Positions 8,646 through 37,400 are shown, counted from the stretch's first letter. The stretch: 64,000 nt of DNA from Candidatus Omnitrophota bacterium (GCA_016177405.1 JACOVG010000021.1:14434-78433), one strand, 5' to 3'. Notes: generated from the sequence alone by a model not told the origin. Numbers and translations: made by a program.

Positions 8646-9299
8646 ATGAAACCTAAGCTTCTGATCGCTTGCGATTTCGACGGAACGCTCACCCGGCAGG
8701 ACACCCTGGTGACGATCCTGGATTCCTTCGGCTCCCCTTCCTGGAGGGAAGTCCAGCAAAAGGTCGTTTCCGGTGAAATCCCGATCCGGGAGGGGCTCGC
8801 GGCGGAGATGGCCTCTGTCCGGGCCAACCGCGAGCAGTTGATCGAGCTTTTGACCCAGCAGGTTGGCGTGGATCCGGCTTTTTCCGGCTTCCTTCATCTG
8901 ACGCGGCGGGAGGGGGTGCCCCTGGTCTGCCTGACCGGCGGCTTCGACCTGTGCGTGGAGACGGTTCTCAAAAAGGAGGGGCTCTGGCCTCTGCCTTATC
9001 TTGCCAACCGGCTCCTGAAGGATAACGGCTCCTGGCATGTGGAGTTTCCGTACCCCTCGGCCACCTGCGCCGCCTGCGGCCACTGCAAGGCCGATCCGAT
9101 CCGCGGCTGGAACGAGCAGGGCTACACCACCGTCTTTGTGGGCAACGGGGTAACCGACCGCTGCCCGGCCCGGGTGGCCAACCTCACCTTCGCCAAGGAG
9201 GAGCTGGGCCAGTGGTGCCAAAGCCAGGGTCTGCCCTGGGTGCCTTACGAGAATTTCTCTGACGTCGAGCAGGAATTAAGGAGGAGGGAATGGATATAA
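8646..9299 (+). CDS. HAD-superfamily subfamily IB phosphatase, MtnX-like (2-hydroxy-3-keto-5-methylthiopentenyl-1-phosphate phosphatase family)
   Basis: Begins with the DFDGTLT HAD motif I, has the C-x-x-C-G-H-C-K Cys motif typical of MtnX-like proteins, and ends with the GNGVTD motif. Confidence 0.6.
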   Translation: MKPKLLIACDFDGTLTRQDTLVTILDSFGSPSWREVQQKVVSGEIPIREGLAAEMASVRANREQLIELLTQQVGVDPAFSGFLHLTRREGVPLVCLTGGFDLCVETVLKKEGLWPLPYLANRLLKDNGSWHVEFPYPSATCAACGHCKADPIRGWNEQGYTTVFVGNGVTDRCPARVANLTFAKEELGQWCQSQGLPWVPYENFSDVEQELRRREWI

Positions 9300-10884: not shown

Positions 10885-11912
10885 AAAAAATGAGATTGCT
10901 TCGTTCGCCAAAGTTCATTGGCGGACTCGCAATGACGTTTTTATTTCTCCCCCCGGCTTTCGCCCAGAAGGCCCTGCGGATCGGGTCGGTCTCTTACGAT
11001 CAGCACGTCCACTCCACCGAGCTGATTAAGTTCACCGTGGCCGTCAAGAACAATGAGGCGACCACCCAGTTTGCCGAGGTGGACATCACCTTGACCAACG
11101 TGGAGACCGAGCAGGAGCTCACCCTGGTGCCCGTGCTCACCGGGAATGTCCTGGCCGGCCAGGAGTCTGTCCTGGTCACCACTTACCAGAACATCCCTGA
11201 CGGCACCTACACAGTCAGCTTTCCCCTTTTTGACGGCGACGGTGTCCGGGTGGACCGGGTCACCGGGTCCACCCCCATCCACATCGGCACCGAAACCGAA
11301 ACCCTGCAGGTCTTTCCGGAGGTGATTCATTTGGGAACCCTGCCGCCGGGCCGCGCGATGTTCCCGACGCCCATCGAGGTGCGCTGGGCTTTCTACCGGT
11401 TCAACCGTTTAAGACTCGATCAGCCCTTCTACATCCGGATTTACTCCGACAACGCCGCCCGCTACCGCGGCGTCCGGGGCGCCCTGCGGCGCAACTCGCC
11501 GGCCGGCCTGGTCTCCGCGGATGGGCGCTTTGCCATTCCGCTGAAGCTCTGGAACCTGAACTACGGCCCGGACATGCAGGAGGGGGGCTGGGACGCCGCC
11601 CTGGCCGGGCCGCCGCCTGTGGACGACGACGCCTTCTGGATCGGCCCGGAGCTTCTGGAGGGGGGCCGCAACCTCGGCTCGGCCAACTGGGTGAGGATCC
11701 CGGATCTTTCGGAGATGACCTCGGACCCGGTGAGCTGGCGGCGGCTGATCGGCCAGGACCCGTTCGACAACCGGTATGTCTCCGACTCCAATCAAACCGG
11801 AGACTTCACCCTAAAGAGCCCCTTCACCCTTTATCTGGCCGCCGAGGCGGGACCCACCGCCGTGGAAGGGGCCTACACCGCCAACCTCGTGGTGGAGCTG
11901 TGGGACCCGTAG
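10881..11912 (+). CDS. Secreted protein of unknown function with the LAMT leader; paralog of 9290..9973
   Basis: The signal peptide is MKKMRLLRSPKFIGGLAMTFLFLPPAFA. It shares the blocks named above and the C-terminal pattern GAYTANLVVELWDP. Confidence 0.6.
   Translation: MKKMRLLRSPKFIGGLAMTFLFLPPAFAQKALRIGSVSYDQHVHSTELIKFTVAVKNNEATTQFAEVDITLTNVETEQELTLVPVLTGNVLAGQESVLVTTYQNIPDGTYTVSFPLFDGDGVRVDRVTGSTPIHIGTETETLQVFPEVIHLGTLPPGRAMFPTPIEVRWAFYRFNRLRLDQPFYIRIYSDNAARYRGVRGALRRNSPAGLVSADGRFAIPLKLWNLNYGPDMQEGGWDAALAGPPPVDDDAFWIGPELLEGGRNLGSANWVRIPDLSEMTSDPVSWRRLIGQDPFDNRYVSDSNQTGDFTLKSPFTLYLAAEAGPTAVEGAYTANLVVELWDP
10893..10938 (+). repeat. Leader cassette copy (gagattgcttcg-ttcgccaaagttcattggcgga-ctcgcaatgacg, followed by tttttatttctc)
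   Basis: Read directly from the sequence. Confidence 0.8.
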
Positions 11913-24044: not shown

Positions 24045-24048
24045 TGCC

Positions 24049-24816
24049 TTACGCCAGAACGAGGACGTGCGGTTCGGCCGGGTATTCCCGCGTCAGCTTG
24101 GCGGAGGCCGGCTTGTCCACGATGATCGTCGCCTTGGGATGCAGCTGAACGATCGTGGCCGGCACAATCGCCGTGATCGGTCCCTCGCAGGTGTTGGCGA
24201 TCGCCTCGGCCTTGCCCGCGCCGTTGGCCAGCAGGATGAGCTGGCGGGCGTCCATGATCGTGCCGATTCCCATCGTGATGGCGTACCTGGGAACCTCGTT
24301 CATGTTGCGGAAGAAGCGGGCGTTGTCCTGCCGGGTCCGGTCGTCCAGGGTCTTGACGCGGGTCCGGGAGCCCAGCGACGAGCCCGGCTCGTTGAAGGCG
24401 ATGTGCCCGTTGCCGCCGATCCCCAGAAGCTGGAGGTCCAGGCCCCCGGCCCGGATGATGTCCTCTTCGTACTTGCGGCAGAATTCCGGGATGTCCTTCG
24501 CGGTGCCGTCGGGGATATGGACGTTCTTGGCGTTCACGTTCAGGTGCTTGAAGAGGTTCTCCCACATGAAGAAATGGTAGCTCTGGGGATGCTCGTGGAC
24601 CAAGCCCACGTACTCATCCAGGTTGAAGGTGGTCACCTTGGAGAAATCCAGACCATCCTCTTTGTGCAGGCGGATGAGCTCCTTGTAGGTCCCCAGGGGG
24701 GTCGAGCCGGTGGCCAGCCCCAAAACGGCCCGGGGCTTGCGGCGGATCAAATCGGCGATCAGCTCCGCCGACAGGCGGGATACCTCGTCGTACGATTCCT
24801 TGACAATGACTTCCAT
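24049..24816 (-). CDS. nagB: Glucosamine-6-phosphate deaminase
   Basis: The 255-aa ORF has canonical NagB blocks (LGLATGSTPLGTYKELI, FNLDEYVGL, IGGNGHIAFNEPGSSL, ITMGIGTIMDARQ). Confidence 0.9.
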   Translation of the reverse strand: MEVIVKESYDEVSRLSAELIADLIRRKPRAVLGLATGSTPLGTYKELIRLHKEDGLDFSKVTTFNLDEYVGLVHEHPQSYHFFMWENLFKHLNVNAKNVHIPDGTAKDIPEFCRKYEEDIIRAGGLDLQLLGIGGNGHIAFNEPGSSLGSRTRVKTLDDRTRQDNARFFRNMNEVPRYAITMGIGTIMDARQLILLANGAGKAEAIANTCEGPITAIVPATIVQLHPKATIIVDKPASAKLTREYPAEPHVLVLA

Positions 24817-24911
24817 GGCTTTAGGGCGACTCCTTCTTTTGTTGGTTGTTGGGTTCTGATAATAAGGCTTTAGCGCGACCGTTCGCGAGGGGCCTTACGA
24901 GGCGAAACCTT

Positions 24912-24941
24912 ATTATATAAGGAGACTCCCGGAGCCGTCAA
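24912..24941 (-). promoter_or_regulatory. Strong sigma70-type promoter candidate for nagB/DUF4954 (TTGACG-18-TATAAT), with the -10 element inside the palindrome CCTTATATAATAAGG
   Basis: On the minus strand the sequence reads cccTTGACGgctccgggagtctccttaTATAATaagg. The -35 overlaps the stop of the TPR gene. An AAGGAG RBS lies 9 nt before the nagB ATG, and a CA-rich leader (cccaacaaccaacaaaag) precedes it. Confidence 0.5.
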
Positions 24942-26578
24942 GGGCTGGCCTTGGTCCGGCGCGCTTCCAGCAAGCCCTGAAGCTTGAGAAGCTCGGGATC
25001 TTCGGGGTGCACCTTGAGGGTCAGGTGAAGCTTCCGCTGGGCCTCGTCCAGCTCTCCGCGGCGGATCGCCAGCTCCACGTCGATCAGGGCCCAGTGGATC
25101 TCTTCCCGCGCCCCCCGGGGGACCATCGAACGCAGGCGGACCTGAGCTTCGTCCAGCCGGCCGGAGCGAAGATCCAGCGCGATCAGGTTGAAGGCGGCCG
25201 GGGTGAAGGAAGGGTCCGCTTCCAGGGCCCGGACGTATTGCTCCCGGGCCAGCGATTCCCGCCCGGCCCGATCGTAGGCCGTGCCCAGGTTGTTCAAGGC
25301 CTCGGCGTAGCGGGGTTGGCCGCGCAGCGCTTCCTGATAGTGCTGGATGGCTTGCTCCACGCGGCCGCGGCTTAACAGGATGTTTCCCAGGTTACTGTGA
25401 ACCTTGGCGCTGCCCGGAGGAAAACGGAGGGCCTCCTCATAAACCCGGACCGGCTCCTGCCAGACCCAGATCCGGTGAAGGCTGATGCCGCTTAAAAAAA
25501 GAATCCACAAGCCCGCCTCCAGGCCGATCCATTTGCGCCAGCGGGGCCGCGCCGCGGCCAGCCGGGCCTTGGCGGCCGCTGTCACCAGCGCCAGCCCCGC
25601 CAAGGGAAGATAGAGCCAGTGGTCGGCCATGTTCGGATCCAGCTGAACCACCAGCCCCGAAACCGGAAGCCAGGTCAGGAAGAACCACCCTGCCCCAAAG
25701 AGGAGGGCCCTGTCCCTTCGGAACCGCCACGCGAGCCAAAGAACCGCCGCCAGCGCCGCCGCCGGAAACCACACCGCCCCAGCGAACCAGGAGGTGACCC
25801 AAGGGATCCGGCGCTCCATGTGGAGATCCACCGGAAGAAGGAAGATTCGAAGGTAAGTGACGAGCATCCGGGGAACCGTGAAAATCCGGCCGGCCCATTC
25901 CAAGGGAGGCTGGTGCCCGCCGAATCCCAGATGGGCGCGGACAGCCAGGTAGAGCAAGAAAAGAAAGACGAGGGGCGCGAAAGGAATCCAGCGCTTGGCC
26001 CAGGGGATCGGCCGGCCCTGGTTCAGCGCCGTCCGATCCGCCCAGAGGAGAAGCAGGGGAAGGATGAGGCCGGCCTCCTTCGAAAGCCAAGCCGCGAGGG
26101 CGCCGGCCAGCGCCGTCAGGTACCAGAAAAAAGCCGAGGGCCCCGCGCCGCGCCGGAACTTGAGCCAGCCGATTACGCCCAGCAGAACCCCGCAAGCCGC
26201 CAAGGGATCCGCCCGCCCGGAAAGGTACCCGACCGCGGCGACCTGGACCGGGTGAACCAGGAAGATCAAGCCCGCGAAGAAGGCCGGGATGGACACACCC
26301 AGCAGAGTCCAGGCCAGGTAAAAGACGAGCGCCGTGTTGACAAGATGAAGGCTCACGCTCGTCAGGTGAAAGCCCAGCGGATTCAACCCCCAGAGCTGGT
26401 AATCCACCAGGAAGCTCACGCCCTGCAGGGGCCGGTAGTAGCTCTGATGAAACACCTCCTGATAAAAGGAGGGCCCAAAGAGGTCCGGAAAAAACCTCCA
26501 GGATCTTAGGAACCGGTCTTCGACGATCAGGAGCTTATCGTCCCAGAGGAAGGGGATTTGGAAGCTGGGCAGATACAA
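24938..26578 (-). CDS. Polytopic membrane protein with a C-terminal TPR-repeat domain (TMTC/DUF1736-like, PMT-type glycosyltransferase-like)
   Basis: The N-terminal ~380 aa contain about 9-11 TM helices and a DUF1736-like WDD motif. The C-terminal ~160 aa carry TPR repeats (AKVHSNLGNILLSRGRVEQAIQHYQEALRGQPRYAEALNNLGTAYDRAG...). The track start is a TTG; the in-frame upstream sequence is also hydrophobic, so the true start is uncertain. Confidence 0.65.
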   Translation of the reverse strand: MYLPSFQIPFLWDDKLLIVEDRFLRSWRFFPDLFGPSFYQEVFHQSYYRPLQGVSFLVDYQLWGLNPLGFHLTSVSLHLVNTALVFYLAWTLLGVSIPAFFAGLIFLVHPVQVAAVGYLSGRADPLAACGVLLGVIGWLKFRRGAGPSAFFWYLTALAGALAAWLSKEAGLILPLLLLWADRTALNQGRPIPWAKRWIPFAPLVFLFLLYLAVRAHLGFGGHQPPLEWAGRIFTVPRMLVTYLRIFLLPVDLHMERRIPWVTSWFAGAVWFPAAALAAVLWLAWRFRRDRALLFGAGWFFLTWLPVSGLVVQLDPNMADHWLYLPLAGLALVTAAAKARLAAARPRWRKWIGLEAGLWILFLSGISLHRIWVWQEPVRVYEEALRFPPGSAKVHSNLGNILLSRGRVEQAIQHYQEALRGQPRYAEALNNLGTAYDRAGRESLAREQYVRALEADPSFTPAAFNLIALDLRSGRLDEAQVRLRSMVPRGAREEIHWALIDVELAIRRGELDEAQRKLHLTLKVHPEDPELLKLQGLLEARRTKASP

Positions 26579-26628
26579 AAGGGCCCCGGAAAGAAATAGG
26601 GCCGCGAGGAAGAAAGGGTGGGCGCGTT

Positions 26629-27174
26629 TTACCAGGGCTGGCGGCTCTCCTCGCCGGGGACGGCCCCGAAGGTCTTGTCCGGCTTGCCGTCGAAATCTTC
26701 GTCCACCCGCCCCCCGGCGATCTTGGTGCCCCCCAGGGCATAGTAGAACCAGGCGTCCGGTTTGCCATCGTGGTTCTTGTCCATGATCATGAGGTCCTTG
26801 ATGCCCTCTTTATAGTAAGACCAGGCGTCGGGTTTGCCGTCGAAGTTGAGATCCGCCCGTTCCCGAATCGCCAAGCCCTTCTCCATCTGACGCAGGAGGT
26901 CCGGCTTGCCGTCGCCGTTGCGGTCCACCTCGGAACGCTCCGGTTTTCCATCCTTGAAGTAGATCACGATCTCCCGCTTGCCGTCCCCCTGCCGGTCCCT
27001 CTCCACCCGGACCAGGAGATCCCCCTCGTAGAACTTCCACTCATCCGGTTTGCCGTCCTTGTTCGTGTCCAGGGCCTCAACCCGCTCCTTGGCCGCGAAA
27101 GCGGCGGAAGGCAAAAGAAACAGCGCCGTCATTGCGAGGACGCGAAGCGGACGAAGCAATCTCTCTTTTTTCAT
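26629..27174 (-). CDS. Secreted calcium-binding-like repeat protein with six D-x-[DN]-x-DGKPD repeats
   Basis: Has the LAMT leader (MKKERLLRPLRVLAMTALFLLPSAAFA). Repeats: DTNKDGKPDEW, DRQGDGKRE, DRNGDGKPD, DLNFDGKPDAW, DKNHDGKPDAW, DEDFDGKPD. These are EF-hand/excalibur-like DxDxDG loops. Confidence 0.65.
   Translation of the reverse strand: MKKERLLRPLRVLAMTALFLLPSAAFAAKERVEALDTNKDGKPDEWKFYEGDLLVRVERDRQGDGKREIVIYFKDGKPERSEVDRNGDGKPDLLRQMEKGLAIRERADLNFDGKPDAWSYYKEGIKDLMIMDKNHDGKPDAWFYYALGGTKIAGGRVDEDFDGKPDKTFGAVPGEESRQPW
27127..27165 (-). repeat. Leader cassette copy (cgtcattgcgag-gacgcgaagcggac-gaagcaatctctc)
   Basis: Read directly from the sequence. Confidence 0.75.
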
Positions 27175-27740
27175 TCTAGGAACCTCAAGGTTTCGTTCAG
27201 GTAATTGACCTTACGGTGGATCTCCTGCCCCGCCGAGGGCAGCCGCTGAAGATCGCTGCGCAGGGCCGAGGCGGTCGACTGCAAAGAGGCCACCAGATTC
27301 TTGCGCTCCTTGTTGCGGGGGCCCAGTCCCGAGGTGATCTCGTTGATCAGCTGGGCCACCTCCTTGAGCTCATCGAAGCGCCTAAGGCTCAAGGGGGCCA
27401 GATCGAACTCGCCGCGCGCCATCAGGTGGAGGTAGCGCTTGATCCGAACCAGGGGCCCGGCGATGGTGTGCGAGATGAACAGCGTCACCAAAAGCGCCAC
27501 CGGCACCAACAGGAGAAAACCCAGCGCCAGGCGCATGTAGATCAAACGGAGAACCTCCACCAGGCGCCCCTGCGGATAGACGTTGGCCAGCCGCTCCACC
27601 AGGTGCGACCACCCGGTGACGTAAACCACCCAGACCGAGATCCCAAAGAAAACAGCCAGAAGCAGGAAGGTCACCAGCATCATGCGCAGCTGCAGGGAAC
27701 TGTCCGTGACAAACTGCGTGCGCTTGAATTTGTCCGCCAT
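27171..27740 (-). CDS. Small membrane protein with a HAMP domain
   Basis: Two TM helices are followed by a HAMP-like segment (SHTIAGPLVRIKRYLHLMARGEFD) and a short coiled-coil tail. Its stop overlaps the start of 26629..27174 (ATGA). An AAGGAG RBS lies 8 nt upstream. Confidence 0.6.
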   Translation of the reverse strand: MADKFKRTQFVTDSSLQLRMMLVTFLLLAVFFGISVWVVYVTGWSHLVERLANVYPQGRLVEVLRLIYMRLALGFLLLVPVALLVTLFISHTIAGPLVRIKRYLHLMARGEFDLAPLSLRRFDELKEVAQLINEITSGLGPRNKERKNLVASLQSTASALRSDLQRLPSAGQEIHRKVNYLNETLRFLE

Positions 27741-27766
27741 CTAAGGCACTCCTTTTATTATTATCA

Positions 27767-28657
27767 TTACTGCCGAACCACCCGAAGGTCCCGGTGAACG
27801 GTCAAGGTCAGCCCTTGGCCGCGGGACTTCTCCACCTGAAGCTGAACCTCCTTGAGGGGCAAGTAGCGGGTCGCCTGTCCGTCCACGGCGGCGACACGGT
27901 CGCCGGCGAGCAATCCCGCGCCCGAGGCGGAACCTCCCGGGTCCACCGCGGCCACGGTCAACCCCATCCTCTCCGTGGAAAACCGGAAGCCCGGCCAGGC
28001 AGGCTGCGCGGGGCCGGCGGGGATGAGTTCGATCCGCCGCGCGAGGGTGATCTTGGCCATCGACCCGCCGGGCCCCAGGAGGAGATACGCCGCCTCCCGA
28101 ACCGGCAAGAAGGCCAGCGACTCTCCCCAGACCGCCGTCAACCGGTCGCCGGCGGCGATTCCGGCGCGCTGGGCCTGCGACCCGGGCTCCACCGACTGGA
28201 CCTCGGGGTATCCCTCGCCGGCCTTCAACCGCAGGCCCCAGCGCGTCAAGAGCTCGCCGGACAAATCGGCGGACAGCGTAAGCGAAGGGACGCCGCGCTT
28301 GGCTTTGAGATCGGCCGCCCGGTTCAGGGCGTCATCGGCCTCCTGAAATTCCGGGTAAATCTGCAGGGCCTTGCGAAAGAGCCCCTGGGCAACGGTGAAA
28401 TCGCCGCCGGCCAGCGACCGGTTTCCCAGGTACAGGTAGTTGCGCTCCGGATCGTCAAAGAAGATCTCGTCAATCTCGCCGCGCGCGATCACCCGTTCAC
28501 CGTCCACGGTGCTGACCACAATCCTGTCCCGGTGTTCCTCCACCACCAGCCCCTTCAGCTCCTCGCCGGAGGTGAAGTAGATCGCGTCCGCGAAAGCGGT
28601 GGAAAGAAATAAGAACGACATTGCGAAGGCCCCAAGCAATCTTGTTTTCATTCGCAC
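27767..28657 (-). CDS. Secreted tandem-PDZ-domain protein
   Basis: Leader MRMKTRLLGAFAMSFLFLSTAFA. Two PDZ-like segments (VEPGSQAQRAGIAAGDRLTAVWG and VDPGGSASGAGLLAGDRVAAVDG) follow an N-terminal TPR-like helical region. Confidence 0.6.
   Translation of the reverse strand: MRMKTRLLGAFAMSFLFLSTAFADAIYFTSGEELKGLVVEEHRDRIVVSTVDGERVIARGEIDEIFFDDPERNYLYLGNRSLAGGDFTVAQGLFRKALQIYPEFQEADDALNRAADLKAKRGVPSLTLSADLSGELLTRWGLRLKAGEGYPEVQSVEPGSQAQRAGIAAGDRLTAVWGESLAFLPVREAAYLLLGPGGSMAKITLARRIELIPAGPAQPAWPGFRFSTERMGLTVAAVDPGGSASGAGLLAGDRVAAVDGQATRYLPLKEVQLQVEKSRGQGLTLTVHRDLRVVRQ
28617..28645 (-). repeat. Degenerate leader cassette copy (cgacattgcgaaggccccaagcaatcttg)
   Basis: Read directly from the sequence. 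Confidence 0.6.
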
Positions 28658-29556
28658 AGCTTCTTGTAGCTTTCGTAGTGGTGAATCGCCAGGCCGCCGA
28701 AGCCCGCTTGGCCGCCCACGGCGTTCACGATCTTCTTGAGCTCCCGGCTCATCACGTTGCAGGTGGTCCCCCCGAAACTCACGTACGCGGGGAAAAGGTC
28801 CTCCTGGGTTTCCTGGCCGATCAAGACCGGCTTGCCCACTTGGCCCCCGTACTCCAGTTCCAGCCGCACCAGGCGCAGGGTTCCATCCGATCCCTCGGCG
28901 AAATTCCGGTAAGCCATGACGGTGACGGTGTCCACCGTGTCCAGGATGTGCTGGGTGGGGCTCTTGACCGAGCCTCGCCAGAGAATCCGGTAGCTGGCGT
29001 CGTCGTCAAACCAAAAGGGAATGTCCACCCCGAAAATCACGGGAACCGGCTCCTTCCGTATCGCTTCGGCCATCTTCGCGTTCAAATCCAGGTAGCCCCC
29101 CAGAAGCTCGCCCGGCCGTTCGTTCCAGGCCTGGGTCAGCAAATACACCTCCACATCGGAGTGAATCCCGTCGAAGCGCTCCTCGGGCGGGGCCTGGCGG
29201 TTCATCTGAAGGACCGCGCCGGTCCAGGCCATGGGAAGGGTGTGGTAGCGGCTCTTCCCCCAGCGCGGGTCGCCCGCCAGGGCATGGACCGAAAGCCCCA
29301 TCTCGTGGGCCTGGCGGTTAAAATCGCGGTACGTCCGGTCCCAGGGGGGCTCCAGGTTGTAGGCCGACAGGTACAGCGTGCCGATTTGGTGCCTTCGGCA
29401 GAAAGCCAGGAGTTTTGCCTTGGATTCTGGTTTGGCGGCGATGCGGGCGTCCCAGACCCACATCGCCCGGGGCGGCTCCTCGGCGAAAACGGAGGGGAGA
29501 AATAAAAACGTCATTGCGAGGGCCCCAAGGGCCCGAAGCAATCTCGTACCCCTCAC
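28648..29556 (-). CDS. Secreted TIM-barrel glycoside-hydrolase-like protein (GHL/DUF4015-type, family uncertain); paralog of the central domain of 32083..34419
   Basis: Leader MRGTRLLRALGALAMTFLFLPSVFA. Conserved blocks shared with 32083..34419: MWVWD/SWVWKYD, AHEMGLSVHALAGDPRW/AHEAGVHVEALQGNPLW, GKPVLIGQETQ/GKKVVIGVETQ, GFGGLAIHHYESYKKL/SFGGLAVHAYDSYRLL. Confidence 0.6.
   Translation of the reverse strand: MRGTRLLRALGALAMTFLFLPSVFAEEPPRAMWVWDARIAAKPESKAKLLAFCRRHQIGTLYLSAYNLEPPWDRTYRDFNRQAHEMGLSVHALAGDPRWGKSRYHTLPMAWTGAVLQMNRQAPPEERFDGIHSDVEVYLLTQAWNERPGELLGGYLDLNAKMAEAIRKEPVPVIFGVDIPFWFDDDASYRILWRGSVKSPTQHILDTVDTVTVMAYRNFAEGSDGTLRLVRLELEYGGQVGKPVLIGQETQEDLFPAYVSFGGTTCNVMSRELKKIVNAVGGQAGFGGLAIHHYESYKKLCE
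29509..29546 (-). repeat. Leader cassette copy (cgtcattgcgag-ggccccaagggccc-gaagcaatctcg); exact reverse-complement match to 9304..9340, preceded by gagaaataaaaacg
   Basis: Read directly from the sequence. Confidence 0.8.
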
Positions 29557-30266
29557 TCGAGGGTGATGTCGTCGAGGTAAACGGTTCCCAGCCCCGCCCC
29601 CTCGGGATAAAGTTCCCCCTCGAAACAGATCGAGATGGAAGCCAATTTGGTGTAGTCAATGAAGTAGGAGGACAACGGAATCACCGCCTTCTGCCATTCG
29701 GCCGTCAACCGGCCCGCCGGCAGGTACTTGCCGATCTCCTCGGACTTGACCGAATCCCCCACCCGGTCCCAGTGCCGGTCGGCCAGCCCCACCATAAAGT
29801 TCTCCTCCCCCTTGTCTCCGCGGACCCAGAAGGTGACTGCCTGGTAGCCGGAGGCGTCAAAATACTGCTCCCCCACCATCGGGGGGCTGGGTTGGTCGGT
29901 GGTGGGCGCCACCAGATAACCGCTTGTCTTTAGAAGGGTGTAATAGCCGCACCAACCGCCCATGCCGTAGGGTCCGCCCTCTGACTGCTTGTCGTAACGG
30001 ATCAGGAGCACGCTGCTCTTGGCGCCGTTCACCTCTTCCTCCACCCGGCTCATCATGATCCGAGAGGGGGCCTTCACATAAACATTGGCCCGCCCGCCGG
30101 CCCGGTTCTGGATCTCCTCCCCTTCAAAATCGTCCACGAGGAGCGGCTCCGCCGCGAAAGCGGTCGTGAGTCGCGCGTCGTGAGTCGTGAGTAGAAAGAC
30201 GCAGAAGGCAAGCCCTACAGTCCTTACCCATGACCCATGACCCATGACCCATGACTTTTTCTTCAT
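29553..30266 (-). CDS. Secreted single-domain protein carrying the recurrent CBM-like beta-sandwich module
   Basis: Module motifs: PLLVDDFEGEE..., GGWCGYYTLL, VTFWVRGDKGEENFMVGLADRHWDRVGDSVKSEEIGKYLPAGRLTAEWQKAVIPL, GTVYLDDITLE. Two heptanucleotide repeat tracts lie in the signal-peptide codons. Confidence 0.65.
   Translation of the reverse strand: MKKKSWVMGHGSWVRTVGLAFCVFLLTTHDARLTTAFAAEPLLVDDFEGEEIQNRAGGRANVYVKAPSRIMMSRVEEEVNGAKSSVLLIRYDKQSEGGPYGMGGWCGYYTLLKTSGYLVAPTTDQPSPPMVGEQYFDASGYQAVTFWVRGDKGEENFMVGLADRHWDRVGDSVKSEEIGKYLPAGRLTAEWQKAVIPLSSYFIDYTKLASISICFEGELYPEGAGLGTVYLDDITLE
30164..30191. repeat. Heptanucleotide tandem repeat (tcgtgag x3 plus variant tcgcgcg) inside the signal-peptide codons of 29553..30266
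   Basis: tcgtgag tcgcgcg tcgtgag tcgtgag, read from the sequence; it encodes LTTHDARLTT. Confidence 0.75.
30226..30253. repeat. Perfect heptanucleotide tandem repeat (cccatga) x4, 10 nt downstream of the start codon of 29553..30266
   Basis: cccatgacccatgacccatgacccatga; on the coding strand this is (TCATGGG)x4, encoding SWVMGHGSWV. Each unit is 7 nt, so it is frame-shifting and carries out-of-frame ATGs. Confidence 0.8.
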
Positions 30267-30275
30267 TTTGTCCTC

Positions 30276-30899
30276 CTACTCCAGCTTAAGATCATCCAGG
30301 TAAACCGTCCCCCTGCCCACACCGCCGGGGAAAAGGGTGCCTTCGAAGCAGATGGCGACGGAGGCCGTCTGCTTGTGATCCAGGAAGAAGGCCTCCACGG
30401 GAATGACGGCCTTCTGCCATTCCGCGGTGACCTTCCCGGCCGGCAGGTACTTCCCGATCGGTTCGGACTTCACGGAGTCCCCCACCTCGTCCCAATGGCG
30501 GTCGGCCATTCCCACCAGGAAGTTCTCATCGCCGGCGGCCCCCCTCACCCAAAAGGTGAGGCTCCGGTAGCCGGAGGCGTCGAAGTAGCGGCTGCCGCTC
30601 TTCAGCAGGGTATACCAGCCGCACCAGCCCCCGGAATCGTAAGGGCCGCCCCGCCCCTTCTTGTCGTACTTCAACATCAGGGAACCGGAGCCTTGATGGG
30701 CCGGGTCCTTCACCAAAAGGGCCAGCGACCGTGAGGGCTCTTTCAGGTAGGTGCTGGCGCGCCCGCCCAGCTTATTGACCGAAGCCCCCTCGAAGTCGTC
30801 AATCAACAGGGGCTCCGCCGCGAAAGCGGCGGTAAGCGGTAAGCAGTAAGCAGTAAGCAAAACAGCGGTCATCGCGAGCAATCTCTTTCTCATTCCCAT
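30276..30899 (-). CDS. Secreted single-domain protein carrying the recurrent CBM-like module; close paralog of 29553..30266
   Basis: PLLIDDFEGASVNKLGGRAS..., GGWCGWYTLL, LTFWVRGAAGDENFLVGMADRHWDEVGDSVKSEPIGKYLPAGKVTAEWQKAVIPV, GTVYLDDLKLE. Confidence 0.65.
   Translation of the reverse strand: MGMRKRLLAMTAVLLTAYCLPLTAAFAAEPLLIDDFEGASVNKLGGRASTYLKEPSRSLALLVKDPAHQGSGSLMLKYDKKGRGGPYDSGGWCGWYTLLKSGSRYFDASGYRSLTFWVRGAAGDENFLVGMADRHWDEVGDSVKSEPIGKYLPAGKVTAEWQKAVIPVEAFFLDHKQTASVAICFEGTLFPGGVGRGTVYLDDLKLE
30831..30858. repeat. Heptanucleotide tandem repeat (ggtaagc x2, agtaagc x2) in the signal-peptide codons of 30276..30899
   Basis: ggtaagcggtaagcagtaagcagtaagc, encoding LTAYCLPLT on the coding strand. 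Confidence 0.75.
30868..30886 (-). repeat. Truncated leader cassette copy (gtcatcgcgagcaatctc)
   Basis: Read from the sequence; it lacks the central hairpin. Confidence 0.5.
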
Positions 30900-32086
30900 T
30901 CCTCCAACAGCTCTTCCTGGGTTTTACGGATAAAGATCAAATCATCCAGATAGACCCTGCCCTTCCCCGGGCGGTGGAAATTCACCACGAAAGAGCCCAT
31001 CTGCGTCCAATCCAGTTTACCAAATTGGGCAAGCGGTATCACCACTTCCTGCCAGCCGGCGGTGAGCCCGCCGGGCAGGAACTTCTCAATCGTTCCGGCC
31101 TTCACCGAATCCCCGATGGTGAGCCACGACTTGTCCGACAGGCCGATCTCGAAGGTCTCCCCTCCCTTTTCCCCGCGCGCCCAAAAGGAGAGGGCCTTGA
31201 AGGGGCTCAAATCGTAGTAGGCGCCGTCGATCTGGTTTAAGAGGGTGTAATAGCCGCACCAGCCGGTGGCCTGCTTGTCGAAATCGAGCCGGAGGGATCT
31301 GCCCTGCTCCCCCCGCCGGGACTCCAGGACCCTCTTCGCCAAACACACGGAGGGAGGCCTCTTATAGGTCCCGGTCTTGCGGCCCAGGAGATTGATGTCG
31401 CTGTGGTCAAAATCGTCCAGGAGCAGAAACCCCTGCCGCTGGGCGGGTTCCTGGACCGAAACCAGCGGCTCCGTGTCAAACCGCAGTCCGTCAATCCAGA
31501 AGGCGCCTTCCCCTTCCTCGTTGAAGTTAAAGACCAGGCTGTAAACGCGGCTTAGATCCACCCCGAAGAAATCCTCCAGGGGCACGCGGACCTCCTGCCA
31601 GTCCGTGGTGATGCCGCCGGGCAGATACCGGTGGATCGAGCCGATGAAAACAGCGTCCTCCCGCTTGTTGGAAATGGTGTCGTTCATGCCGATCTCGAAG
31701 GTTTCTCCCCCCCTGGCTCCCTTCACCCAAAAGCTTAACGCGGCAAAGCGGGACAGGTCCCCCAGCACGATGAGGTAGGCCCCGCAGAAAAAGGGGTCCT
31801 TCGCCCGCCGGTAGCGGTATCGAACGGCCCCCGGCGAGGCCGGATCCTGCTTCACCCTCTCGTCCAGATAACAGCCGTACTTCGAGGGCTTCATGGCGAA
31901 GCCGCCGGTCTTGCCCCTCTTGGCAAAGCGCTCCTCGGCCGGAAGGAGCTTCGTGCCCAGCGGCAGGGGGGCGGCTTCGTCGAGAGAAACCATCTCCGCG
32001 AAAACAGCGGTAAGCAGAAGGAGGGACGCTCCAAAAAGGGACACACCTCGGCAAGAGTGTCCCCAAATGGAGCGTCCCCTTTTCAT
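30890..32086 (-). CDS. Secreted protein with two tandem copies of the CBM-like module
   Basis: Copy 1 has ...LSFWVKGARGGETFEIGMNDTIS...WQEVRVPLEDFF...FWIDGLRFD. Copy 2 has GFLLLDDFDHSD..., GWCGYYTLL, LSFWARGEKGGETFEIGLSDKSW..., RVYLDDLIFI. The likely start is the ATG at 32084-32086 (MKRGRSIW...), overlapping the TGA of the upstream gene (ATGA); the track start of 32125 is probably too far upstream. Confidence 0.6.
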   Translation of the reverse strand: MKRGRSIWGHSCRGVSLFGASLLLLTAVFAEMVSLDEAAPLPLGTKLLPAEERFAKRGKTGGFAMKPSKYGCYLDERVKQDPASPGAVRYRYRRAKDPFFCGAYLIVLGDLSRFAALSFWVKGARGGETFEIGMNDTISNKREDAVFIGSIHRYLPGGITTDWQEVRVPLEDFFGVDLSRVYSLVFNFNEEGEGAFWIDGLRFDTEPLVSVQEPAQRQGFLLLDDFDHSDINLLGRKTGTYKRPPSVCLAKRVLESRRGEQGRSLRLDFDKQATGWCGYYTLLNQIDGAYYDLSPFKALSFWARGEKGGETFEIGLSDKSWLTIGDSVKAGTIEKFLPGGLTAGWQEVVIPLAQFGKLDWTQMGSFVVNFHRPGKGRVYLDDLIFIRKTQEELLEEWE

Positions 32087-34419
32087 TCGAGGGTCAGCTC
32101 GTTGAAGGTGGTCGGGTCGCCCCACTGGCGCTCGCCGGAGGTGGAGATCAGCGCCTTCTGGGGAAATTTGGCGTGGTCGGTGTCGGAGCCGTCAATCATG
32201 ACCCCCAGCCGGAAGCCCGGCTTGAACCGCTTGCTCGAGAGCACCTCCTCCTGGGCGGGAGAAATCTCCGGCGCCGGTCTCGGGCGGGGCGAAACCTGGC
32301 GGGGATCCACCCCCACCCGCTTGCCCAGGGTCTGGAACAGGAAGCCGCTGGGCAGACGGACCTCCAGCGTGTAGCCGTTGCCGGCGCGGGCGGCGCCGAT
32401 CCGGACGTCGGCCAGCGAGGCGGGGTCCACGGAAGGGACCCAGACCCAGATCTCCGGGGGCCGCTCGCTGAAGTTGCCCGGGCTCAAACCCAGCTGGAAG
32501 TCGTCCAGGGAATTGACCGCCTCGGTGTAGTCCCCCAGGAGATCCACATCCAGCCACAGCTCCACGTGGTCCCCCTGCCACAGGTCGCCGGCGGCCCACT
32601 CCTGAACCAGGGCATCGTCCGCCACCTCTATCGCCAGGTACAGGGCCTCCGGGCTCCACTGAAACGCCGCCTTGAAGCTCAAGTCCTGGGGCGATTTCCA
32701 GGCGCCGGCCCCGTAGACCACCTGGCCGCGATGGTCGAAGGTGTACCACCGGGCCCCTTCCCACTCGTCCAGGTTTCCGTCGGCGGCAATCGGAATGGGC
32801 GCGGGCCGGGCGGTCAAGGGCGCGACCTTTCCGGTCCTCTCGCGGGTGGGGACGTTGCGCCCCTTTTGAAGAAGCCGGTAGGAGTCGTAGGCGTGGACGG
32901 CAAGCCCCCCGAAGGAGGGCTCTCCCTGAAAGGCCTCCACCACCTGGGCCAGCTGGCGCTCCATCTCCTCCCAGCCCTCCTCGTGGAAGGTGTTGCGCCG
33001 CTTGCCCTGCGACATCTGGACCAGGTCCTGGGTCTCCACGCCGATCACCACCTTCTTGCCCAGCCGCTTGGCCGTCTCCAGGTGGAAACGGGCGTTCTTC
33101 ACGATGTCGACGGCGGAATCGTAATAATCCATGAGGGCGGCATAGTCCACCTGCTTCAGCAGACTGGCCTCGAACTCCGGCTCCCGGTCGTAGAAGACCG
33201 GGATCGCCAGGCCCATCTGGAAGGATCCTTCGGCGCCCTGCTCGCTGTTGATCAGTTTCCTCAAATCAACCATCAGCTCCACGAATTCCGCCTGGAGCTT
33301 GGCGCGGTCGCCGGTTTCCCAATCGGCGGTCAGATACGGCTCGATGTCCAGCGAAACGCCGTCGATACGCTCCTGGGCGGGGCGTGCGCGGTTGAAGGCG
33401 AGAAACCCCGAAACCCATTCCAGGACCCTGGGGTGGTACTCCTTCAAGGCCCAGAGGGGATTGCCCTGCAGGGCTTCCACATGAACCCCCGCCTCGTGCG
33501 CCTGGGCCAGAAACTGGGCAAGCTTGGCCTGATAATCGGCCGGCATTTCCAGGATGGGGCTCTCCCCGAGATAGACGAAGAGGGTTTCCAGGGCGGCGCG
33601 CCGGGCGAAATCCAGGAGATCCCTGCGCACCCTCAAGTCGTTCACCGGATCGTACTTCCAGACCCAGGAGAAGCGGGGGGCGCGCGGATTGGCCGCGGCG
33701 CGGGGCGCGTTCTCCTCCTGCACGCGCTCCACCCCCTCGTCGTAGGTGAAGGCGACGTCGTCCACGTAGACCGTCCCCCGGCCCTCGTACCTGAACCAGA
33801 GAACCAGAGAGCCCATCCGGGTCATGTCCATGTCGGTCCGCAGACCCGCCAGGGGCACCTTGACCTGCTGCCACTGGGTGGTGACCCCATCGGGCAGGAA
33901 GGCCATGATCGGCCCGGCAAAGATCGCGTCTATCTCGAGCTCCTGCATTTTCTCGTCGGCGAAGCCGATGTCAAAGCGCTCGCCCCCCTGCTCGCCCTTC
34001 ACCCAGAAGGTGAGGGCGTTGTGCCGGCTGACATCGATCCCATTGAGGAGGGTGTACCACCCGCACCAGCCGCCCAGCTTGGCGTACTCCAGCCGAAGAC
34101 AGGAGGAGCCGCCGCGGCCGGGCCGGGTGTCATCGGCCTTGGTGATCACCGTGTAGGAGGGCCTTCTGGCCCAAGTCCCCTGGAAGGCGTCCAGCCGGTT
34201 CTTGCGCTCGGCGAAGATTCCCTGGGTGGCGCCCACCTCAAAATCGTCCACCAGGATCGGCTCCAGGATTCGCGGAGCCGGCGGCGCGGGACGAGCGGGG
34301 GCGGGAGGCAAGGCGGGGGGCCGAGGAGAAAAGAACCGCGCGGCCGCCCATCCCGCGCCGACGGCCGCGGCCACAACAACGCAAATCAGGAGAATCTTTC
34401 TTCTCGGCATCGCCCCCAT
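32083..34419 (-). CDS. Secreted multidomain protein: CBM-like module + TIM-barrel GH-like domain + C-terminal CBM9-like (DOMON-like) carbohydrate-binding domain
   Basis: The likely start is MGAMPRRKILLICVVVAAAVGAGW (ATG 34417-34419) rather than the track start of 34641. Module motifs: ILVDDFEVGAT, GGWCGWYTLL, LTFWVKGEQGGERFDIGFADEKM, GTVYVDDVAFT. The central domain is paralogous to 28648..29556. The C-terminus (DGNLDEWEGARWYTF...LSFKAAFQWSPEALYLAIEVADDALV...LWQGDHVELWLDVD) resembles CBM9-like domains. Confidence 0.65.
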   Translation of the reverse strand: MGAMPRRKILLICVVVAAAVGAGWAAARFFSPRPPALPPAPARPAPPAPRILEPILVDDFEVGATQGIFAERKNRLDAFQGTWARRPSYTVITKADDTRPGRGGSSCLRLEYAKLGGWCGWYTLLNGIDVSRHNALTFWVKGEQGGERFDIGFADEKMQELEIDAIFAGPIMAFLPDGVTTQWQQVKVPLAGLRTDMDMTRMGSLVLWFRYEGRGTVYVDDVAFTYDEGVERVQEENAPRAAANPRAPRFSWVWKYDPVNDLRVRRDLLDFARRAALETLFVYLGESPILEMPADYQAKLAQFLAQAHEAGVHVEALQGNPLWALKEYHPRVLEWVSGFLAFNRARPAQERIDGVSLDIEPYLTADWETGDRAKLQAEFVELMVDLRKLINSEQGAEGSFQMGLAIPVFYDREPEFEASLLKQVDYAALMDYYDSAVDIVKNARFHLETAKRLGKKVVIGVETQDLVQMSQGKRRNTFHEEGWEEMERQLAQVVEAFQGEPSFGGLAVHAYDSYRLLQKGRNVPTRERTGKVAPLTARPAPIPIAADGNLDEWEGARWYTFDHRGQVVYGAGAWKSPQDLSFKAAFQWSPEALYLAIEVADDALVQEWAAGDLWQGDHVELWLDVDLLGDYTEAVNSLDDFQLGLSPGNFSERPPEIWVWVPSVDPASLADVRIGAARAGNGYTLEVRLPSGFLFQTLGKRVGVDPRQVSPRPRPAPEISPAQEEVLSSKRFKPGFRLGVMIDGSDTDHAKFPQKALISTSGERQWGDPTTFNELTLE

Positions 34420-34450
34420 CTTACCACAACCTCGACGCCGCCCTTTTCCG

Positions 34451-37400
34451 CTACAGCTGCGTTGAAACGGCGGCGGAATCTTCCAGGCCGGACTCAACGG
34501 AAGGCTCCTGCCCCGCGCTCGGCAGCCTCCTTTCCAGATCAATGCGGGCCGCCGCCGCCTGAAGACCCTTTTCCACCTCCAAGCTGACGATTTGCGGGTC
34601 GATCCCAAAGATGTCCAGGAACCCTCTAACGTGAAGCTCATTCAGAAAACCGACCGCCCTGAAACTGAAGGGATAGGTCGCGGCGAAAAGCCGGCGCAGC
34701 CACTCCTCCAATTCTGCCCTTGTCTTCTGCTTCTCCTCTCCTTCCGGGATTCCCTCGCCCCAGTCCGTCAGGTTCTCCACCAGGATTCTAATCTCCCTCC
34801 AGGAGGCCCTCTCCTCCGGCCGATTTTCCGGGTCGAACTCCATCCTTTCAATCACCATGCGGCGGATGATCCGAAAGAGGTAGCCCCACGGCTTGCTCTC
34901 CCGCAGGGTGGCCGAAGAGGTCCCGAGGATCAACGGACGCTTTTCTTCAAGCGATCTCAAGGCCCCATAGGGATCCAGGAGAATCGCTTTTTGCGGGTCG
35001 GCCGGATGGGGCAGCAGAACCATCATCTCGGCGGCCAGCATCAGCTTTCCCTGGTAGGGGTCGCCCTTCCCGGCGGCATGCTCGGTGATCCGCAATCCCG
35101 CCGGGTCCAGCAGGCCTCCCCAAAGCTCCACGATCTTTTCCTCGCTTCCCCTGCCAAAGGTGGGTTGTTTCAGTCCCGCGTCTTGGGCCAGGCCAGGGAA
35201 AAGCGCCCGCGGGTCGGACACGCCCAAGACTTGACACAACCCTTTGATCTTGGGCGCCAGGCGCTCCAGGCGCCAGGCCTCCTCCGGGCTTTTCGCCTCC
35301 GGCAATAGATTGATCTCCTCCTGAACCTCCCAGGCCTCTTCCTTCTCCGCCACCAGCACGAGGTCCAGATCCTTAAAGGCCCGCTCGGCTCTGCCCCCTT
35401 CCGCCAAAAGACTTAGCACGCTTCCACCGTGCAGCCCAATCCGGAAGAGCCCATTTTGATGAAGCATCTGCAGGAAGCGCTTCGCCGGGTGATAGGCGAA
35501 CCGCCTTAAGTCCATCTCATAAAGACCATCGGCCAGCGGCACGACGGCCTGATGAAAGAGCCGGGAGCGAACCACGAACTGGCTTATGGCGAGCCACCCT
35601 TGAGGATCCTGCCGGAATTCCGTCGGATACCCTATCAGGGGAGCCAGCGGCCCCCCCGGCCCCTGCAGCATCCAAACCGGCAGGGAGTAGCCGCGGATCT
35701 CCGGATCCATCACCGGCGGAACATTGAGCCGGAGGGTTCGGGGGTCCAGCAGCCAGGCCAGATCATCCCAGGCCGCGTCGTCCCATTGGTCCACCCCTTT
35801 CAGGACCAGCCTCATCTGCCGGTCCCTCAAGAAAAGCCAAAGCCCTTCCGGCAGCCACACCTCCCTTAACAGGTTGAGGGAACCCCCTTCCGCGCTCAAG
35901 TAGTGGACTCCCGATCCGCTAAGCTCCAGCACAGCCGCCTTCGCGGCCCTCGCCGTTGGGCGGATGGTTTCCTGGACAAATCTCCTGTAGCCTTCAAAAG
36001 GGGCGCCGGAGCCAGCCGGCGAAGCGACAAGCTCCATCCTGCCGGAGCCCAGCCAGCGGAGCTCCAGGCCCCAAACTCCTTTCAGGGGAGGAAAAGGCTC
36101 TCCCCGCTGCAGGGCCTCCAGATCCACCGTGCCGATCTTAGAAAGGAGAGAGGAGATTTGCCTTGAGAGGGCTGGATCGCTCTTTACCTCGTCGGGAACG
36201 TCGAGGTGAAACACCCTTCTTTCCTGGAGGGATTCCTCCAACCGCGCCAGGGAGGCATCCGCCTCTATTCCTCTTGGAGGAAGGCGTCTCAATCTGGATT
36301 CATAGAGATCAACCTGGTTGGGAGAAGGAAGGCCGCCCAGCATCACCCGGTCGGCTTCATCTCCAACCGTGGAAGAAACAAAGCTGTTGGCCAGGGTGTT
36401 TCGGTTGAGGTCCAGAGGGACTCCCGCTCCCTGCCCGCGATAACGCTCCAGCCGCTCGCTGAATCCGCTCTGAACCGAAGGGATCATCAGCTCGCTCAAG
36501 CCCGGCCTCGTGCTTCCCAGCACCACGTAATCCGGCCACTCGAATCGTTCCCGGAAAATCGATCGGGTCTCCATGAGCCAGACGGCCAAGGCGATTCCCA
36601 GCTCTCTGCCGGATTCCCAAATGGCCGTCTTGGCCGGATTCTCCCCTCGCTCTTTTTCAGGCCTGTTCGCGGCAGCCACGAGCCCGCCCAGCGTCAGTTG
36701 ATCGGCCTTCAAGAGCTCCCTGGCGCGCGCCAGGATCCTGGCGATGCTGACCCTATCCTCCAGGTCCTGCTCCCCAGGGGCCAGGGTGGGATGAAAACCT
36801 TTCGTTTCCCTGGCAACATAACGATAGTCGGGGCTCCCCGGGTTTCCGGTGAAAATCAGATGGTGGGGCGCCTCGCTGTGGTAAAGGATCTCCGGCTCTC
36901 CCTGAAAGGATTTTCCGTTGACAACCATCTGGGCGGCAATGCCGTTTCCAATGTGAACAAACAACAGATTGTCTACTCCCGGACAAGTCCCCCTTAGGCC
37001 TACTTCCCCCCTTGCCCCTGCCCGCGCGTTGGAGACCACATCTACCTCCAGGCGGCCCAGGGAGGGATCGCGTTTGCCCTCGTAGAGTTGGTCCAGTCTT
37101 TTTTGGACCTCTTCCTTGAAAGAGAATCCTTTCGGGAACACGGGGAGCCAGGAGATTCGCTCAACCAGCGCGCCGTCCGAATCCACAAAGCCGGGAACAG
37201 AAAAATAGACGTACATGACCCTGTCGGGCCCATACCGCTCGACCACCCGCCGGATCGCCTGGACGAGGCGCTCGACAATCTCGCCGGGCGCGTCGCTCCG
37301 GTCCGGTTTGAGAAAAATGCGTTCGTGCTCGGCCGGCCCCCAAAAGCCCTGCGGGATACCGGCCCGGAAGACGATTGCCTGGTCCTCCCCGACGCCCATC

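Follow-up and report, generated by a model that had tools for sequence, protein, structure and literature searches.

A conserved five-gene block with CBM11/30-like modules and an unclassified GH18-like barrel family beside giant genes of a Candidatus Omnitrophota bacterium

In the passages considered here of two preprints on Omnitrophota (10.1101/2023.11.21.568195; 10.64898/2026.06.07.730766), giant-gene loci are described as flanked by glycoside hydrolases (GHs) and carbohydrate importers, digestion of prey cell walls is proposed for these loci, and GH2 is named, in passages of the latter (10.64898/2026.06.07.730766), as the dominant flanking glycoside hydrolase. The locus analysed here, a block of five genes (g1 to g5; 28648-34419), lies in a stretch of 64,000 nucleotides of Candidatus Omnitrophota bacterium (GCA_016177405.1, JACOVG010000021.1:14434-78433; henceforth called the window, with all positions counted from its first letter). 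Its proteins combine a recurring module resembling carbohydrate-binding modules (CBMs) of families 11 and 30, a TIM barrel resembling GH18, and a CBM9 domain. The block has in common with the published loci the phylum, giant genes upstream, and a carbohydrate importer nearby, whereas the giants here (2-4 thousand amino acids (aa)) are far smaller than those on which the two preprints centre in these passages, which make no mention of the five-gene block, the barrel family, or a CBM-bearing MalG permease. The block fits the published giant-locus pattern and extends it by a defined, conserved set of genes and by an enzyme family without a classification. Clusters of carbohydrate-active enzyme (CAZyme) type are already known; this one is a variant in which an unclassified family related to GH18 occurs together with CBM-type proteins that stand alone and with a permease that bears a CBM-like module.

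On balance, and with slightly better than an even chance, the block is an exported glycan-binding and glycan-cutting set that feeds a nearby importer and cytoplasmic catabolism and is conserved in Omnitrophota. Such a set would resemble the polysaccharide utilisation loci of Bacteroidota, in which several dedicated, non-catalytic surface glycan-binding proteins are encoded beside a hydrolase and an importer for one glycan. The analogy is functional only, as the block has neither a SusC/SusD pair nor a lipoprotein signal, uses another module family, and is accompanied by an ATP-binding cassette (ABC) importer. A preliminary description, made from the sequence alone, had placed five co-directional open reading frames (ORFs) here, all of which were found in the sequence:

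32083-34419, minus strand: g5, 778 aa; apparent N-terminal signal anchor, proline-rich linker, CBM11/30-like module, GH18-like TIM barrel, CBM9
30890-32086, minus strand: g4, 398 aa; signal peptide and two tandem CBM11/30-like modules
30276-30899, minus strand: g3, 207 aa; signal peptide and one module
29553-30266, minus strand: g2, 237 aa; signal peptide and one module carrying a 20-residue insertion
28648-29556, minus strand: g1, 302 aa; signal peptide and a stand-alone TIM barrel (28651-29472)

Copies of the module were located with a hidden Markov model (HMM) built from g3 orthologues and with tblastn. Exactly six were present in the window, all on the minus strand, and none was found elsewhere in it, including the giant neighbours:

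29556-30152, minus strand: module copy in g2
30279-30818, minus strand: module copy in g3
31469-31993 and 30923-31438, minus strand: two module copies in g4
33739-34266, minus strand: module copy at the N-terminus of g5 (residues 52-227)
5703-6194, minus strand: module copy in MalG (residues 57-220)

All 15 pairwise BLASTP comparisons between the copies were significant (E 2e-11 to 1e-84), with g2 and g3 sharing 57% identity. Pfam CBM30 was matched above its cutoff of 27 bits by g4 (67.6 bits, two stretches), g5 (29.9), MalG (28.4), and g3 (27.6), g2 scored slightly under it (26.2), and matches to Pfam CBM_11 stayed under that model's cutoff (25.2-26.4 bits). CIA30, a non-carbohydrate relative of the same fold, was also matched, more weakly, in both the Pfam and the fold search. 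An AlphaFold2 (AF2) model of g3 (alignment of 34 sequences; predicted local distance difference test (pLDDT) 91.7) was compared with the PDB using Foldseek; the best match was CBM11 1v0a (E 1e-8, target-normalised template modelling (TM) score 0.76, root-mean-square deviation (rmsd) 2.7 Å), followed by CBM11 6r31 and by CBM30 structures 1wzx, 1wmx, and 2c24 (target-normalised TM 0.65-0.72), and after these by CIA30 and other CBMs. Because Pfam profile and predicted fold both point there, the module is termed CBM-like, more precisely CBM30/CBM11-like, and is predicted to bind glycans. With the CBM11 and CBM30 modules of Clostridium thermocellum cellulosomal enzymes it has the beta-jelly-roll in common (target-normalised TM 0.65-0.76, rmsd 2.7-4.5 Å) at merely 16-20% identity; unlike them, it occurs here in stand-alone secreted proteins, in tandem, and in a permease loop.

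The barrel was found in exactly two copies in the window (local HMM, tblastn), which share 30% identity over 281 residues (E 3e-31):

32845-33687, minus strand: TIM barrel of g5 (residues 245-525), motif DGVSLDIEPY at 33334-33363
28651-29472, minus strand: TIM barrel of g1, motif DGIHSDVEVY at 29143-29172, E249 at the end of strand 7

The AF2 model of g1 (pLDDT 90.6) was a regular (beta/alpha)8 barrel of eight strand-helix units. Its top Foldseek match in the PDB was Cwp19 of Clostridioides difficile (5oq3; E 1.7e-10, query-normalised TM 0.63), followed by dozens of GH18 chitinases, endo-beta-N-acetylglucosaminidases, and chitinase-like proteins. At the profile level, GH18 was the only Pfam family repeatedly matched by relatives of the barrel: two g5 orthologues reached it (34.6 and 35.1 bits against a cutoff of 29.6, over about 100 of 317 profile positions), as did 3 of 60 distant representatives at E<=1e-3 and 5 of 27 isolated barrel domains at E<=1 (best 1.5e-7), one of which also matched GH18_BT1044-like. 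Neither g1 nor g5 reached the Pfam PF00704 (GH18) gathering score, with no match at E<=1.

Residues invariant across both paralogue families (g1 numbering) were W33, W35, G95, P97, W99, H105, W111, N119, G130, D134, E136, Y138, W144, Y216, E249, T250, and H292. For Asp and Glu of strand 4, Glu of strand 7, and His of strand 8, the invariance extended to 60 representatives of a 50%-identity library. In the g1 model, strand 4 ends with D134-x-E136 and strand 7 with E249, and M-x-Y216 is part of strand 6. Strand 4 reads D129-G-I-H-S-D134-V-E136 in g1 and D-G-V-S-L-D-I-E in g5 (DGVSLDIEPY being conserved in 97 of 107 g5 orthologue domains), i.e., the second Asp of DxxDxDxE is replaced by His or Ser, and the other two Asp are kept together with the Glu. 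Strand 6 reads 'VMAYRN' in g1 and 'IMxYRD' in the family consensus, and strand 3 reads 'LAGDPRW', the GH18-type SxGG being absent. The family motifs FDGIHxDxEPY and IMxYRD align with GH18 FDGxDxDWE and MxYD at equal spacing, and the same register appeared in a profile alignment to chitinase 5jh8, which was non-significant. The fold is common to GH18 and the barrel family, and strand-4 DG-x-x-x-D-x-E and strand-6 M-x-Y agree with the GH18 motifs in part; the family differs from GH18 in an additional invariant Glu on strand 7 and in His/Tyr for Trp on strand 8; the strand-7 Glu is a feature of clan GH-A and PgaB and has no counterpart in Cwp19. As GH18 is the sole recurrent Pfam family, the strand-4 and strand-6 motifs resemble those of GH18, and the strand-7 Glu is invariant, the barrel is probably a glycosidase whose family is GH18-like but unclassified and has kept its catalytic-type residues, as judged from sequence and model.

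The invariance of these acidic residues also bears on whether the barrels cut at all. In a non-catalytic scaffold, the barrels would be lectin- or inhibitor-like and the block would form an adhesion or docking layer together with giant surface proteins. GH18-type folds have repeatedly been turned into lectins or inhibitors (XIP-I, Ym2, and SI-CLP were among the fold matches of g1), the second Asp of DxxDxDxE is absent, binding modules outnumber barrels in the block by 5:2, and the block adjoins giant secreted or membrane proteins. D134, E136, and E249 nevertheless do not vary in either paralogue family or in distant representatives from many phyla, as expected of catalytic residues, and loss of the Glu is characteristic of GH18 lectins; for this reason, a scaffold without any catalysis is considered very unlikely.

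The only sequence relative of the barrel in the PDB was 10yv, deposited as "Putative GH97 from Cellulomonas fimi" (275 aa), with E-values of 7e-6 for g1 alone, 3e-11 for a g1-family profile, and 1.1e-29 for a profile of 27 diverse domains, the last aligning end to end (107 bits, profile 5-278 on chain 6-272). The WxW, DxE, strand-7 ET, and H/Y motifs are common to 10yv and the barrel family; 10yv is, however, actinobacterial and a single domain without CBM modules. No activity or publication for 10yv or a similar C. fimi enzyme was found in a literature search. Membership in GH97 was rejected, as no Pfam GH97 model (catalytic, N-terminal, or C-terminal domain) was matched in g1, g5, the 60 representatives, or the 27 isolated domains, and the depositors' own label of 10yv is the sole link of the barrel to that family. 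GH97 enzymes are large multi-domain proteins; the barrel domain here has about 275 aa.

Small exported TIM-barrel enzymes acting on N-acetylglucosamine (GlcNAc)-containing cell-envelope polymers, i.e., Cwp19 (GHL10) and the C-terminal domain of PgaB, offer a further comparison. Membership in GHL10 (Cwp19-like, Pfam DUF4015) was also rejected, since the likeness is one of fold, no profile match was obtained, and the strand-7 residue differs: Cwp19 carries Gly328 where the barrel family has its invariant Glu (PMC5765458), and GHL10 is marked by this Gly together with a putative Asp/Arg dyad. Accessory domains differ as well, with cell-wall-binding repeats in Cwp19 and CBM-like modules here. Given the missing middle Asp, the absent SxGG, and the strand-7 Glu, the barrel was filed in none of GH18, GH97, and GHL10. 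The glycoside hydrolase family that the preliminary description could not assign is accordingly placed as one for which no model exists in Pfam or NCBIfam and to which GH18 is the nearest Pfam family.

The comparison with Cwp19 opens another possibility, unlikely but to be weighed seriously, namely that the barrel and module proteins trim or remodel a periplasmic or surface glycan of the cell itself (peptidoglycan, a polymer like poly-N-acetylglucosamine, or another exopolysaccharide) in envelope or exopolysaccharide processing, with an accessory role in morphogenesis or export, instead of feeding. The best structural match of g1 is the peptidoglycan-active Cwp19, whose own closest structure, PgaB, retains the strand-7 Glu (PMC5765458). 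PgaB, BcsZ, and PslG act on the polymer of their own cell beside synthases, as Cwp19 acts on peptidoglycan, and g5 appears to be membrane-anchored.

The remaining domain of g5 and the export signals were assigned with the same approaches. At its C-terminus, g5 matched Pfam CBM9_1 (residues 547-777, 36.6 bits against a cutoff of 23.4, profile positions 2-182 of 185), and its orthologues scored 57-76 bits:

32086-32781, minus strand: CBM9_1 domain of g5 (Pfam PF06452), residues 547-778

Hydrophobic N-terminal export signals were present in all five proteins (in the sequences, and as N-terminal helices in the models), in agreement with the earlier call that they are secreted; that of g5 looks like an uncleaved signal anchor. 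The module, barrel, and CBM9 calls of the preliminary description all held under profile and fold tests, and assignment to non-carbohydrate families by profile, named beforehand as the outcome that would speak against them, did not occur.

The gene order g5-g4-g3-g2(-g1) recurs in Omnitrophota, and the architecture of g5 was found in about 120 orthologue clusters. Named homologues of g1, g3, and g5 were nearly all from Omnitrophica/Omnitrophota, the remainder being one 'bacterium' entry and Candidatus Auribacter fodinae. The metagenome locus L001 is ordered as giant gene, 1102-aa gene, g5, g4, g3, g2, g1, PDZ gene, two small genes, NagB, and DUF4954 gene, and the window has the same order save for one inserted TPR membrane protein. 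In the loci L003 and L004, the order is 333-aa gene, GH94, g5, g4, g3, g2, where the GH94 gene directly upstream of g5 was closest to cellobiose phosphorylase (E 1.7e-147) and chitobiose phosphorylase (E 1e-132). Fusions of g5 and g4 exist as proteins of about 1200 aa, e.g., P0172. Two genes downstream of the block in the window are retained in L001:

27767-28651, minus strand: TPR and double-PDZ secreted protein; overlaps g1 and also follows g1 in L001
24049-24816, minus strand: NagB, glucosamine-6-phosphate deaminase; downstream of the block and at an equal relative position in L001

NagB was assigned at equivalog level (NCBIfam TIGR00502, 325.7 bits against a cutoff of 236.9). Besides the PDZ/TPR gene, HAMP-like genes follow g1.

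The importer is encoded towards the start of the window. In it, a solute-binding protein (SBP) is fused N-terminally to a MalF-type permease, and its MalG-type partner carries a 164-residue insert. The insertion of the module into MalG, as first described, was borne out by Pfam, whereas the distance to the block had been put at 24 kb and was 22.3 kb from g1 to MalG:

5028-6362, minus strand: MalG-type ABC permease; CBM11/30-like module after the first hydrophobic N-terminal segment; Pfam BPD_transp_1 and CBM30 both match
6320-8605, minus strand: SBP-MalF fusion, partner of MalG, 761 aa; Pfam SBP_bac_1 and BPD_transp_1

CBM-bearing MalG proteins of relatives were 48-79% identical, retained the insertion, and always adjoined an SBP-MalF fusion; both oddities of the importer were conserved in at least 7 related metagenome loci, with the two genes syntenic in L085-L095. 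A NagC-like ROK regulator was syntenic with them; its counterpart in the window (820-2022) was most like NagC, at a score under that model's cutoff. In L085, the transporter locus is contiguous with the DUF4954 end of the block, so that the 2687-codon gene of the window appears as an insertion into a continuous supercluster. The link between the MalG locus and the block is strengthened by this conservation and synteny. The "polysaccharide-capture and degradation set" of the preliminary description is thus partly supported, in that its domain calls hold and the MalG link has become stronger; capture and degradation as such are a plausible reading. The same neighbours speak against a role in processing the cell's own glycan, since in Omnitrophota the block travels with NagB, GH94 phosphorylase, a sugar ABC importer, and a NagC-like regulator and with no synthase, and since a trio of separate binding proteins without catalytic domains would be expected for the capture of a substrate rather than for the export of a polymer.

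Outside the phylum, a composite profile (module, barrel, and CBM9 columns, i.e., not the barrel alone) matched 9855 representative proteins at E<=1e-3, with architectures of barrel alone, barrel and CBM9, module and barrel, tandem barrels, and proteins of more than 2000 aa. A pattern scan of one genome per species found relatives of the barrel in at least 420 species, among the matches listed in Acidobacteriota, Planctomycetota, Verrucomicrobiota including Kiritimatiellae, Omnitrophota, Gemmatimonadota, Myxococcota, Spirochaetes, Ignavibacteriales, and Paenibacillus. A module gene like g2/g3 lay directly upstream of the barrel gene in genomes of Kiritimatiellae, Acidobacteriota, and UBP3; the pairing of module and barrel thus predates the phylum Omnitrophota. 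In a Paenibacillus barrel locus, GH16, GH3, a ROK regulator, and an SLH protein were encoded nearby.

Several of these results weigh against a nutritional glycan-cutting set. Across 28 loci from other phyla, no carbohydrate families recurred beside the barrel gene and the neighbours were chiefly housekeeping genes, as is mostly the case in Planctomycetota, Acidobacteriota, and Verrucomicrobiota. In Pirellulaceae (Stieleria and another genome), the barrel gene abuts a processive GT2 synthase. These housekeeping and GT2 contexts would fit envelope or exopolysaccharide processing as well as nutrition, and the former is further favoured by SLH domains in some members of the barrel family and in neighbours, and by the PDZ/TPR and HAMP-like genes after g1; the GT2 gene of Stieleria is, however, convergent and not co-transcribed. 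At the level of the enzyme, the TM-scores of the g1 model to known glycoside hydrolases are modest (<=0.63), the barrels of g1 and g5 have no Pfam or NCBIfam match of their own, the link to GH18 is drawn from relatives with borderline matches and from similar motifs, the barrel-family profile gave no significant match to GH18 chains of the PDB (best E 1.3), and no demonstrated activity was found for any member of the family. Hints at the substrate also conflict: a beta-glucan would be in line with CBM11/30/9, with GH94, and with GH16 and GH3 beside the Paenibacillus barrel gene, whereas GlcNAc is suggested by NagB, by the regulator resembling NagC, and by the GH18-like motifs.

Under the favoured reading of an exported set feeding the importer, g2, g3, and g4 would be soluble, non-catalytic proteins that bind a beta-linked glycan chain via one or two CBM11/CBM30-type modules. 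The g5 protein would hold a module, a (beta/alpha)8 glycosidase domain, and CBM9 at the inner membrane, and g1 would be a free copy of the glycosidase domain. The active site of the barrel would be GH18-like (strand-4 Asp-x-Glu, strand-6 Met-x-Tyr, and many aromatic residues), with the strand-7 Glu in addition as in clan GH-A/PgaB. A retaining hydrolase is envisaged, in which E136 (g1 numbering) would be the acid/base, and either E249 or an acetamido group of the substrate itself, held in position by D134, would serve as nucleophile. The substrate class would be a beta-linked gluco-configured polymer, and the products would probably be beta-1,4-linked gluco-configured di- or oligosaccharides of cello- or chito-type. 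Their uptake could proceed through the ABC importer nearby, in which MalG would display the same module in a periplasmic loop, and they would then be metabolised in the cytoplasm, here via NagB and in other lineages via GH94 cellobiose/chitobiose phosphorylase.

Gene boundaries were compared with the database entries of this organism. The proteins g5 and g3 were 100% identical to HYS41_04520 and HYS41_04510, respectively, both "hypothetical protein" entries of a Candidatus Omnitrophica metagenome-assembled genome. For g5, NCBI gives a start at 34410 instead of the 34419 first described; for g3, the probable start is 30893, as annotated by NCBI (205 aa). A 4-nt overlap had been claimed at every junction. 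It is present at g5/g4 (ATGA) and g2/g1 (GTGA), and at g4/g3 (ATGA) if counted from the second ATG (30893), the overlap being 10 nt from the originally described start at 30899, whereas g3 and g2 are separated by a 9-nt gap that contains a GGAGGA motif. The tight packing behind the term operon-like block stands, but the gene string runs past the five genes on both sides, as the PDZ gene (27767-28651) overlaps g1 by ATGA and a giant gene (34451-40948, 2165 codons) terminates about 31 nt upstream of g5. The five genes thus belong to a longer run of genes in one direction, among them the giant genes and those of PDZ/HAMP-like type. Scans of 24000-41500 for consensus promoters and terminators gave counts at or below shuffle expectation and are thus uninformative on operon boundaries.

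The giant genes of the window comprise the following, with the block immediately downstream of those of 2165, 4338, and 3269 codons:

13911-21974, minus strand: giant ORF, 2687 aa
34451-40948, minus strand: giant ORF, 2165 aa
40941-53957, minus strand: giant ORF, 4338 aa
54084-63893, minus strand: giant ORF, 3269 aa
38759-40678, minus strand: N-terminal region of the 2165-aa protein (residues ~91-730), recurring near the block in L001 and L004

Homologues of this N-terminal region were a 1102-aa gene upstream of g5 in L001 (6670-9978) and a 532-aa gene in L004 (17294-18892; tblastn E ~1e-28). As counterparts of the N-terminal third of the secreted 2165-aa protein lie beside the block in two other contigs, this region is a recurring partner of the block; it had no Pfam match even at E<=10. 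Among the three upstream giants, one weak Pfam match (NAGPA) and no PDB sequence match were obtained, and the two largest giant proteins had no Pfam match at E<=0.01.

The block could also be a cell-wall-digesting toolkit of host-dependent or predatory Omnitrophota, which is judged rather unlikely. The stand-alone modules and the anchored g5 would bind an envelope polymer of the prey (e.g., peptidoglycan, pseudomurein, or some other glycan with GlcNAc), which would be cut by a hitherto unrecognised family of glycoside hydrolases, and the fragments would pass directly to the module-bearing MalG importer, with the block working together with the adjacent giant secreted or membrane proteins. If this were true, a new CAZy family would be at hand whose hybrid active site combines a GH18-like Asp-x-Glu with a clan-A-like strand-7 Glu and which is spread over Planctomycetota, Verrucomicrobiota, Acidobacteriota, and others.

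Further observations were made on the giant proteins and the region between the block and the transporter locus. The motif GLE[ED], usually [AVSGT]GLEE, is present in all four giants, with 20 occurrences in 12,459 aa where residue shuffles give an expectation of 1.35 (500 shuffles, maximum 5). In 18 other proteins of the window (7,427 aa in total), it occurs only once. A role in processing or docking, or as a junction, is conceivable. Giant Omnitrophota proteins have been suggested in the literature to be cleaved after translation. The 2687-aa protein (13911-21974) contains ARMT1-like (DUF89), DUF4922, and NAGPA (phosphodiester glycosidase) domains, and its neighbour (22065-24044) encodes a DUF4954 protein of the left-handed beta-helix type (LbH, hexapeptide-repeat) that also gave weak matches resembling nucleotidyl transferases. 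In L085, the 2687-aa giant is missing at the equivalent place, and the DUF4954 gene directly abuts a homologue of window 11900-13906.

Next to the transporter, a conserved protein of about 333 aa (2188-3189, minus strand) has homologues in L003 (6341-7342) and L004 (6141-7160) and carries the motifs DPWGV..GGET, a CxC..C cluster, and GTDPYW. Its gene adjoins the ROK regulator and the transporter in the window, and GH94 and g5 in L003/L004. It had no Pfam, NCBIfam, or PDB relative and is not a homologue of g1; possibly it acts in the same pathway as an enzyme of the cytoplasm. On the plus strand, 9290-13906 encodes four co-directional secreted proteins of 227, 304, 343, and 668 aa without a Pfam match, of which the 227-aa and 343-aa proteins have a domain in common (…GLVS.DGRFAIPL…) and the 668-aa protein ends in an aromatic residue, like outer-membrane barrels; synteny between these four genes and the transporter locus was seen in L085, L086, L088, and L092.

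A near-identical signal-peptide core, 'LLR..(K)..GGLAMTFLFL' or 'LGALAMT.LFL', occurs in many exported proteins of the window (e.g., ORF starts at 29556, 28651, 27174, 9290, 9970, 10881, and 8605), which suggests a lineage-specific signal sequence or a common recognition feature. At the opposite end, g2, g3, and g5 (window 29553, 30276, and 32083) terminate in '[TK]LE', with an [LF]E terminus in 112 of 120 g3-family proteins and L[KEQ] in g5 orthologues. It is conceivable that the double-PDZ protein encoded next to g1 recognises these C-termini, which may equally be simply the last beta-strand.

Omnitrophota are uncultured, ultra-small, and thought to be host-dependent, and the block bears on both their diet and the workings of their giant-gene loci. 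The substrate of the barrel, if found, would define a new glycoside hydrolase family in hundreds of species of Acidobacteriota and of bacteria of the Planctomycetota-Verrucomicrobiota-Chlamydiota group, would give a function to the solved, uncharacterised structure 10yv, and would allow the "cell-wall digestion" hypothesis for Omnitrophota to be tested concretely, by biochemical means. Should it be an ordinary beta-glucan or chitin, the block would merely be another member of a large set of CAZyme clusters; its significance would rise substantially if the enzyme attacks prey cell walls or defines a new GH family.

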